DNA of 64,000 nt from Escherichia coli (lineage in GTDB: Bacteria; Pseudomonadota; Gammaproteobacteria; Enterobacterales; Enterobacteriaceae), in NCBI GenBank assembly GCA_902500055.1, contig GCA_902500055.1_4131.1; one strand, written 5' to 3'. The first letter of the stretch is position 1; each line of letters begins with the position of its first letter. The notes below the pieces were generated by a model. The model made no database searches. It had not been told where the DNA came from and saw only the letters and a list, made by a program, of their open reading frames with translations. Position numbers and translations under genes: made by a program. This document shows, one piece after another, positions 18,327 to 19,362 of this stretch.

Positions 18327-18695
18327 CTATCGATTCGGCATATTCTTTCGTAGTCGCAAGAGAAATTCAACCACTGACCATGTTGTAATGAAGGCAATAT
18401 AAGTTGCAAGGAATCCAGTAAGAATAAATGCAACCAGCGTACTACCATTTGGGGAATCAGTTTTAATGCCGATGACACCATCGGCTACAGTGAAACATGT
18501 AGCCATTAATGTGTAACCTACGTACAACACAAAGAAAAACTCATTCTCCATTGAAGGATAGAAACGGTTAAACACTTTATAAAATTTAAAGTACAGTAGG
18601 ATTATACCAACAAAGGCATAGAATGTAAACAGTGTTGTTATAATATATGAGATTAGGTTCAAATTATACATATCAACGCTCCGGTAGATTATCAC
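18327..18695 (-). CDS. Small multi-pass membrane protein (cluster B, member 1; C-term KNMPNR)
   Basis: Hydrophobic ORF; paralog of neighbours. Confidence 0.6.
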   Translation of the reverse strand: MIIYRSVDMYNLNLISYIITTLFTFYAFVGIILLYFKFYKVFNRFYPSMENEFFFVLYVGYTLMATCFTVADGVIGIKTDSPNGSTLVAFILTGFLATYIAFITTWSVVEFLLRLRKNMPNR

Positions 18696-19020
18696 GTAAT
18701 GTTTTAATTCGATGATACATTTTCATACCAATATTACCAAAGATACCATATCCAAGTACTAAAATGTATGCAATAAGCATAGTAATAATTACTATAGTGC
18801 CAAAACTATAATGTACACTACTGATACCCATTGTAGTTTCAACGATTATTTGAGAAACTGAAAGAATCAAAAGTACAACTACAATTGGATGATTTGGGTA
18901 CATTCGGTTGAACAACGTTTTGTACTTAAAGAAGCACAGTACTCCACCGAATAAGAAGTAAACAATGTAAATGCAAGCAACAGCATAGGCAAACATGTTA
19001 GTGTAATAAATCATTTCCAA
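18673..19020 (-). CDS. Small multi-pass membrane protein (cluster B, member 2; C-term DNLPER)
   Basis: Hydrophobic ORF. Confidence 0.6.
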   Translation of the reverse strand: MEMIYYTNMFAYAVACIYIVYFLFGGVLCFFKYKTLFNRMYPNHPIVVVLLILSVSQIIVETTMGISSVHYSFGTIVIITMLIAYILVLGYGIFGNIGMKMYHRIKTLRDNLPER

Positions 19021-19023
19021 TCC

Positions 19024-19362
19024 TTACTTTTCAGGGATATTAGAACGCCATATATCAATGCGATGAACTAGTCCAAAGAACAACCATACTGGAACGGCAG
19101 CTATCATAACAACAAATGAAAACCCAGTCAACACCGATACCAGATTTAATTCATCAGTACTATACCCACATATCAGTACTTCTAATATTCCCCACGTACA
19201 TGCACAAAACATCAAGAATGAAATTGGGGCATCATAGTAGATACGTTCATATAAAGTAGTATATCGGAAGAATGCAATAATATAGCAAAACATATAATAC
19301 ACCCAAACCAAAGATACTACATAAAATGATACTTTGTTTATTAATTCAAAATATTGTTCCAT
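19024..19362 (-). CDS. Small multi-pass membrane protein (cluster B, member 3; C-term SNIPEK)
   Basis: Hydrophobic ORF. Confidence 0.6.
   Translation of the reverse strand: MEQYFELINKVSFYVVSLVWVYYMFCYIIAFFRYTTLYERIYYDAPISFLMFCACTWGILEVLICGYSTDELNLVSVLTGFSFVVMIAAVPVWLFFGLVHRIDIWRSNIPEK

Follow-up and report, generated by a model that had tools for sequence, protein, structure and literature searches.

Two clusters of small membrane protein genes in an Escherichia coli jumbo phage belong to one motif-defined superfamily

Results

We analyzed a 64,000-nucleotide stretch of DNA (hereafter, the window) from contig GCA_902500055.1_4131.1 of an assembly filed under Escherichia coli, which carries two clusters of small membrane protein genes on its minus strand: cluster B, made up of the genes B3, B2, and B1, and cluster A, made up of seven open reading frames (ORFs) that span 12154-14593 (Table 1). 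The window comes from an E. coli jumbo phage of the Asteriusvirus (121Q/PBECO4-like) type; megablast with positions 12000-20000 recovered Escherichia phages CRJP21, phAPEC6, G17, 121Q, and PBECO4, all ~350-kb genomes of the genus Asteriusvirus, at 97% DNA identity over 89 to 100% of the query. We provide evidence from profile comparisons that all ten proteins belong to a single superfamily with two subfamilies. B1 to B3 are genuine genes, each encoding a small inner-membrane protein with three predicted helices, and cluster B is related to the cluster A array without being a part of it. The 121Q counterparts (gp209, gp208, and gp207 for B1, B2, and B3, and gp232-gp225 for cluster A) are all annotated "hypothetical protein."

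A sequence-only reading of the window had described cluster B as three tandem ORFs with the related basic tails RKNMPNR, RDNLPER, and RSNIPEK, and these ends proved exact: the three consecutive minus-strand ORFs, as listed at 18327-18695, 18673-19020, and 19024-19362, close with LRLRKNMPNR (B1), KTLRDNLPER (B2), and DIWRSNIPEK (B3). Since an AGGA precedes ATG 19014 by 6 nt and the B2 orthologues P0002 and P0005 begin MIYYTN and MIFYTN, and since GGAG lies 7 nt before ATG 18671 and the B1 orthologue P0007 begins MYNLNL, we moved the starts of B2 and B1 to these two codons. The B2 stop then lies 1 nt upstream of the B1 start, B3 and B2 are separated by 9 nt, and the three genes abut with no overlap. 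B3 is 100% identical in 21 phage records. The B1 orthologue of Salmonella phage SD-1_S14 (P0008) lacks 13 residues inside its third transmembrane (TM) helix, measures 101 aa against the 114 aa of B1, and is probably a defective copy.

In all ten ORFs, hydrophobicity peaks three times, near residues 12, 46, and 80. The members of subfamily I (B1 to B3, A5 to A7, and their orthologues; 32 sequences) share three marks: TM1 ends in a near-invariant aromatic-F-K/R motif ([FWY]-F-[KR]), TM2 is followed by a Gly, and the C terminus is a φ-R-x-[KN]-φ-P-[EDN]-x tail (φ, hydrophobic residue). F32, R106, and P110 are conserved in at least 90% of the 32 sequences, and both the TM1-end motif and the R-x-[KN]-φ-P tail are present in B1, B2, and B3. 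Subfamily II (A1 to A4 and their orthologues; 25 sequences) is instead marked by GK-F-F-C at the end of TM1 and by a φ-H/R-x-x-φ-x-K-R tail. The window has 243 ORFs with a length of 50 aa or more; five of them (B1, B2, B3, A5, and A6) carry R-x-[KN]-[ILMFV]-P in their final 12 residues, against 0.095 such ORFs predicted from amino acid composition. The likeness that the sequence-only reading had drawn between the cluster B tails and a cluster A tail ending NKIPEE thus holds for A5 and A6 and fails for A7, with its variant RDKIRGDF, and for A1 to A4, whose tails have diverged to the subfamily II form.

An AlphaFold2 model of B3 built from the 32-sequence alignment (pLDDT, 89.4; pTM, 0.69) places helices at residues 2-31, 46-65, and 74-107, plus a short helix at 35-41 in loop 1. 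Lysine and arginine together average 3.3 residues per sequence in loop 1 and 3.5 in the C-terminal tail against 0.3 in the N-terminal tail and 0.5 in loop 2, a positive-inside pattern from which we predict an N-out/C-in topology. Hydropathy, positive-inside counts, and the model, all of them predictions, agree on three TM helices in this orientation. On this model, the two conserved motifs would be neighbors at the cytoplasmic surface of the inner membrane, and the variable parts would be TM2 and the periplasmic loop.

Table 1. Family genes and neighboring features of the window (E values are for the matches named)
Feature	Coordinates	Strand	Length	121Q counterpart	Description	Matches
B3	19024..19362	-	112 aa	gp207	subfamily I, 3-TM; tail ...WRSNIPEK	PHROG 19285, 4e-59
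B2	18673..19014	-	113 aa (from ATG 19014)	gp208	tail ...LRDNLPER	PHROG 19285, 4.5e-59
B1	18327..18671	-	114 aa (from ATG 18671)	gp209	tail ...LRKNMPNR	PHROG 19285, 2e-4; subfamily I HMM, 8e-30
A7	14255..14593	-	112 aa	gp225	subfamily I, variant tail ...GRDKIRGDF	subfamily I HMM, 1e-29; RaK2 orthologue, 1.6e-9
A6	13908..14255	-	115 aa	gp226	subfamily I; tail ...LRNKIPEE	
A5	13573..13911	-	112 aa	gp227	subfamily I; tail ...LRAKVPDARY	RaK2 orthologue, 38% identical, 4e-20
A4	13259..13573	-	104 aa		subfamily II; tail ...FRRNQKRKRGM	subfamily II HMM, 3e-32; RaK2 orthologue, 5e-12
A3	12891..13259	-	122 aa		subfamily II	subfamily II HMM, 7e-38
A2	12527..12889	-	120 aa (from ATG 12889)	annotated in the 120-aa form	subfamily II	subfamily II HMM, 2e-32; cross-match to subfamily I, 9e-5
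A1	12154..12525	-	123 aa		subfamily II	subfamily II HMM, 6e-41; RaK2 orthologue, 39% identical, 1.6e-22
NrdC.10-like P-loop ATPase	14661..15434	-	257 aa		upstream neighbor of array A; not a family member	
orf93	19365..19646	-	93 aa		soluble; immediately upstream of B3; not a family member	
Promoter candidate TTGACA-17-TATTCT	19683..19711	-			sigma-70-like; upstream of orf93 and B3-B2-B1; hairpin between hexamers; consensus match only	
Promoter candidate TTGACA-17-TACTAT	14623..14651	-			sigma-70-like; between the ATPase gene and A7; internal hairpin; consensus match only	

The two clusters were compared with hhalign, using orthogroup alignments from eight related phages and reversed-sequence decoys that scored 12.5 on average (standard deviation, 2.3; maximum, 21.2). 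Within cluster B, the scores were 75.5 (B2-B3), 53.9 (B1-B3), and 35.9 (B1-B2). Between the clusters, A6-B3 (36.0), A7-B3 (28.5), A6-B1 (26.8), and A1-B3 (25.8, over 105 columns) exceeded the decoy maximum, and A6, which also scored 25.4 against B2, is the closest cluster A relative of cluster B. Within cluster A, A5-A6 (50.6), A2-A3 (42.5), A1-A3 (33.3), A6-A7 (30.3), and A1-A4 (28.8) exceeded the same limit; three unrelated 3-TM ORF families of the window scored no more than 20.6. A hidden Markov model (HMM) built only from distant database members ranked B3 (2e-19), B2 (6e-18), B1 (6e-17), A7 (6e-8), A6 (1e-7), and A5 (1e-6) ahead of everything else among the 243 window ORFs, followed by A1 (7e-3) and A4 (1e-2), with noise beginning at 0.1.

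The two subfamily profiles align with each other end to end over 110 columns (95.7% probability; E, 8.8e-9; score, 49.5), placing 'wFFK' opposite 'g.FFc' and 'lR.kiPer' opposite 'iH.ki..Kr'; reversed profiles reached 14, other 3-TM families at most 16.5, and column shuffles a mean of 8 and a maximum of 12.5. The metagenomic array L010 contains members that match both subfamily HMMs. Given this decoy-controlled match and these intermediate matches, the profile evidence clearly indicates that B1 to B3 are homologous to A5 to A7 and that subfamily I as a whole is homologous to A1 to A4, making all ten ORFs one superfamily. The claim of the sequence-only reading that the two clusters represent the same family is therefore borne out. 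Against phage WPEC3, the ratio of nonsynonymous to synonymous substitution rates (dN/dS) lies between 0.09 and 0.37 for all ten genes and at 0.03 for the NrdC.10-like ATPase gene next to cluster A, so that the family genes are under purifying selection and yet evolve faster than the ATPase gene.

The superfamily is rare. A HMMER scan of 1.84 billion representatives with a profile of the cluster B proteins and A5 to A7 returned only 23 proteins at E of ≤1e-3, each of 89 to 118 aa, matched over the full length, free of fusions, and provided with both the FFK-type motif ending TM1 and the φ-R-x-[KN]-φ-P tail; in a database of 5.8e9 proteins, 11 and 13 clusters matched. Over 40 phage genomes carry conserved orthologues, and RaK2-like jumbo phages are the only ones in which these searches found the superfamily. 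Array A, collinear in Klebsiella phage RaK2 and Erwinia phage Hallingskeid, counts eight members in the former, about ten genes in the latter, and up to twelve in metagenomic contigs (L010). RaK2 carries collinear orthologues of A7, A5, A4, A3, and A1 at 28 to 39% identity. In a neighbor-joining tree, A5, A6, and A7 each cluster with their RaK2 orthologue (bootstrap support, 98, 64, and 67), and the B proteins stand apart from cluster A, although the B grouping itself has bootstrap support below 50%.

Cluster B was found by tblastn only in Asteriusvirus-type genomes, and B3 as the query detected no cluster B in RaK2 or Hallingskeid. Phage A4 has a single cluster B gene; most other genomes, Turkey5 among them, have three. 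Cluster A varies as well: 121Q has an extra A7, Turkey5 has two A4 genes, and RaK2 has two A6-like genes and no clear A2. Array A is an old, order-conserved array and cluster B a separate, lineage-specific expansion of one to three copies. The pairing of the cluster A clades with RaK2, the position of the B proteins apart from them, and the restriction of cluster B to Asteriusvirus-type genomes together indicate that cluster B is an old offshoot of the A6/A7-like lineage. In Turkey5, the second and third B-type genes are separated by an inserted 117-aa ORF (10666-11019) that is unrelated and highly charged.

The seven genes of cluster A follow one another with 1- to 4-nt overlaps or 1-nt spacers and lie directly downstream of a gene for a P-loop ATPase with about 41% identity to T4/T2 NrdC.10 (tblastn) and a weak AAA_16 match. 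The ATPase gene followed by the array recurs in 121Q, Turkey5, A4, WPEC3, RaK2, Hallingskeid, and the metagenomic contigs L009 and L010, and this layout was seen in every Asteriusvirus examined. No array accompanies the ATPase in T4-type phages or in Xanthomonas phage XaC1. Cluster B is not immediately downstream of the ATPase gene; it lies ~4 kb upstream as a separate unit behind a kinase gene and orf93. In the 121Q record, the A4 orthologue (record positions 4259-4574; window positions 13259-13573) is split into two short coding sequences, gp229 and gp228, by one extra T in a run of six, with the remainder 100% identical to the window; the extra T may be a genuine frameshift or may be an error in sequencing the homopolymer.

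The neighborhood includes early-type genes, namely, those for a T7 gp0.7-like kinase and for NrdC.10, and a sigma-70-like promoter candidate lies ahead of each cluster (Table 1). In the related phage CBB, RpoD-like promoters are concentrated among short ORFs, which the authors of that study suspect to be early takeover genes (PMC5259590). The virion mass spectrometry table of phAPEC6 lists nothing between gp010 and gp035c (PMC7247149); the family occupies gp012c-017c and gp028c-029c in that phage, so that none of its members was detected in particles. This phage group has its endolysin at 121Q gp532 (PMC5259590), far from the family genes of 121Q, gp207-209 and gp224-232.

The window also contains five minus-strand copies of the stem-loop cassette AAAGGNTTGACTNNGGTCNNCCTTTT, at 15472-15497, 20388-20413, 22233-22258, 22995-23020, and 26236-26261, where none is expected by chance. 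Each has a TTGACT -35 box embedded in it, with a TAT-rich, -10-like hexamer after it. Less strict forms of the cassette lie ahead of A7 and orf93/B3. The cassettes resemble the promoter-early stem-loops of T4-type phages.

Searches for a relative of known function, whether by sequence or by structure, returned none in the databases consulted. Pfam gave only subthreshold noise, and NCBIfam and PADLOC gave nothing; a sequence profile search of the PDB stopped at a best E of 1.7, and a Foldseek search of the PDB with a first, low-confidence model was empty. The top match in BFVD, a putative membrane protein of GAP32, is not significant (E, 0.38), and this protein is probably a distant relative. 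All ten window proteins are full-length PHROG members: eight match at E of 1e-51 to 1e-70, B1 has an E of 2e-4 with PHROG 19285, and A2 comes no closer than 0.07 to PHROG 26405. PHROGs 19285, 19046, 19454, and 27396 hold subfamily I, and PHROGs 27618, 26405, and 33258 hold subfamily II; all are uncharacterized. No description of the family proteins was found in the literature on Asteriusvirus, phAPEC6, RaK2, nrdC.10, and PBECO4/121Q.

Discussion

Databases already listed the proteins described here as hypothetical, and PHROGs divided them among at least seven separate families with no assigned function; new is their unification into one superfamily of two subfamilies with shared motifs, together with the recognition of a conserved array adjacent to the NrdC.10-like gene. 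In kind, lineage-specific small phage membrane proteins encoded in early regions are a familiar type, and the result as it stands is a tidy piece of annotation and no surprise. RaK2-like jumbo phages nevertheless spend at least ten genes on this family and keep the order of the array across phages of Escherichia, Klebsiella, and Erwinia, which argues for a selected role at the host inner membrane.

We give roughly even credence to the reading in which B1 to B3 and their relatives are early inner-membrane proteins that act individually in host takeover or exclusion and are neither virion nor lysis proteins. The functional part of this scenario, early expression, membrane insertion, and action on the host envelope, is one that we infer as the best explanation. 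In such a scenario, the sigma-70 RNA polymerase of the host would transcribe both clusters early from the promoter and stem-loop elements, and the proteins would insert into the host inner membrane, where each would act by itself on components of the envelope or membrane during takeover, for example, by excluding superinfecting phage or by neutralizing membrane-acting host functions. Docking or insertion might then rely on the shared juxtamembrane motifs as a common surface, with specificity coming from the divergent parts. The variable copy number fits proteins that act individually and are partly redundant, and the proteins would be neither virion components nor the lysis holin. T4 Imm and Sp, small inner-membrane superinfection-exclusion proteins that are expressed from early genes and act on the host envelope, provide the functional analogy that we favor. 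They differ from the family in TM number, and no similarity to them was detected in Pfam at E of ≤1 (Imm-type families included) or in NCBIfam. Several observations weigh against this scenario: the promoter calls are consensus matches, and their regional total of 58 is not above that of shuffled sequence (51.6 ± 6.4); virion mass spectrometry readily overlooks small hydrophobic proteins; the topology is a prediction; and the order-conserved retention of each cluster A paralogue across phage genera fits a multisubunit assembly at least as well.

That assembly is the main rival, and we judge it unlikely rather than negligible. Under it, the paralogues would be subunits of one hetero-oligomeric inner-membrane structure, such as a channel, pore, or scaffold, perhaps working with the NrdC.10-like ATPase, with cluster B supplying alternative or additional subunits. 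The one-to-one orthologues of A7, A5, A4, A3, and A1 that RaK2 keeps in the same order despite their low identity, the same layout in Hallingskeid and L010, and the invariable position of the array directly after the ATPase gene all speak for it, as do the overlaps and 1-nt spacers that run through the array and favor coupled, stoichiometric expression, and the shared cytoplasmic motifs could be contacts between subunits or with the ATPase. A fixed complex is harder to reconcile with a copy number that differs among 121Q, Turkey5, RaK2, and L010, with an ATPase that T4-type phages and XaC1 carry with no array beside it, and with the location of cluster B 4 kb away in another transcription unit; the frameshifted A4 orthologue of the 121Q record, possibly a sequencing error, is a mild point on the same side. 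A bolder form, which we hold to be less probable still, is that the 7 to 12 array paralogues and the extra B proteins constitute a phage-built, hetero-oligomeric inner-membrane machine that would be conserved among RaK2-like jumbo phages and that the ATPase might power or organize through a conserved cytoplasmic FFK/RxKIPE surface. With the T4 nrdC.10 neighborhood, the region shares a homologous ATPase; the membrane array is found only in RaK2-like jumbo phages, and T4 nrdC.9,.8,.7, rI, and the neighboring genes are not homologous to the family (E of ≥0.06 for nrdC.9,.8, and.7).

A holin or antiholin type of lysis-timing function is improbable to a greater degree. Class I holins, such as lambda S105, measure ~105 to 120 aa, cross the membrane with three helices in an N-out/C-in topology, and end in a short, charged tail on the cytoplasmic side, and the family proteins resemble them in size, in the number of predicted helices, in predicted topology, and in their basic tail; no holin, moreover, has been identified in the literature that we examined on this phage group. 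They differ from such holins in occurring as ten paralogues rather than one or two, in lying among early-type genes with sigma-70-like promoters and away from the endolysin gene (121Q gp532 against gp207-232), and in lacking a Met-Lys-Met-type dual start, and no Pfam holin family or holin-annotated PHROG matched at E of ≤1, nor did profile or sequence comparison reveal any similarity, the best BFVD holin match having an E of 2.6. The origin of cluster B invites a rival of its own, since both clusters are tandem runs of related genes on the same strand ~4 kb apart, and the sequence-only reading had called them duplicated. That they are related stands; that cluster B arose by a recent segmental duplication of three cluster A genes we consider very improbable, given that B-B profile scores (36 to 75) exceed all B-A scores (≤36), that the tree pairs A5, A6, and A7 with RaK2 orthologues and leaves the B proteins separate, that B-A protein identity is only 10 to 25%, and that megablast finds no DNA similarity between the clusters, each matching a single place per record. 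A resemblance due to hydrophobic composition and chance, or ORFs that are not real genes, might have been suspected from the weak BLAST similarity of clusters A and B within the window (best, 4.6e-4) and from the tendency of TM proteins to inflate alignment scores. This explanation is refuted by profile scores far above those of reversed, shuffled, and unrelated-TM controls, by position-specific motifs conserved throughout subfamily I, by dN/dS values well below 1, and by the conservation of orthologues across phage genomes.

Two short motifs and a confident fold model define the family and make it a clean set of targets for deletion and expression work. Were exclusion or antidefense to prove its role, the family would bear on the host range and therapeutic use of these phages.

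Other features of the region

Immediately upstream of B3, orf93 has no match in Pfam and is probably the first gene of the B3-B2-B1 transcription unit; related phages have a similar-sized gene directly upstream of the first B gene, whose likeness to orf93 is one of size and position only. Further small predicted membrane ORFs outside the family lie on the minus strand at 16584-16835, 22570-22833, 26801-27178, 27629-27955, 37279-37704, and 37701-38123. Several of them are conserved in relatives. As candidate members of a third cluster (ORFs 16584, 22570, 26801, 27629, 37279, and 37701), they were rejected on decoy-level profile scores.

The stretch between the clusters (15435-18326) contains many indels among relatives, and homing/HNH endonucleases, denV, and a DNA methyltransferase are present or absent there depending on the relative (121Q, WPEC3, ph0011, and BF17); just 89% of window positions 12000-20000 find a match in 121Q. 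At the other end of cluster A, a perfect hairpin with a 10-bp stem (12124-12147) lies just downstream of A1, and the GC skew switches sign at about 11000-12150. In 121Q, plus-strand RCC1-like genes, several of which correspond to virion proteins in phAPEC6, meet the minus-strand block convergently near the same end of A1 (about 11000-12150).

Existing annotations of the two clusters, as seen in records MK817115.1 and OQ708376.1, are uneven. The phAPEC6 annotation has no coding sequence at the B3 (19024-19362) or A2 (12527-12889) position, and CRJP21 labels its B3 locus "endonuclease V" and its A7 locus "regulator of chromosome condensation," apparently the product of a shifted annotation.
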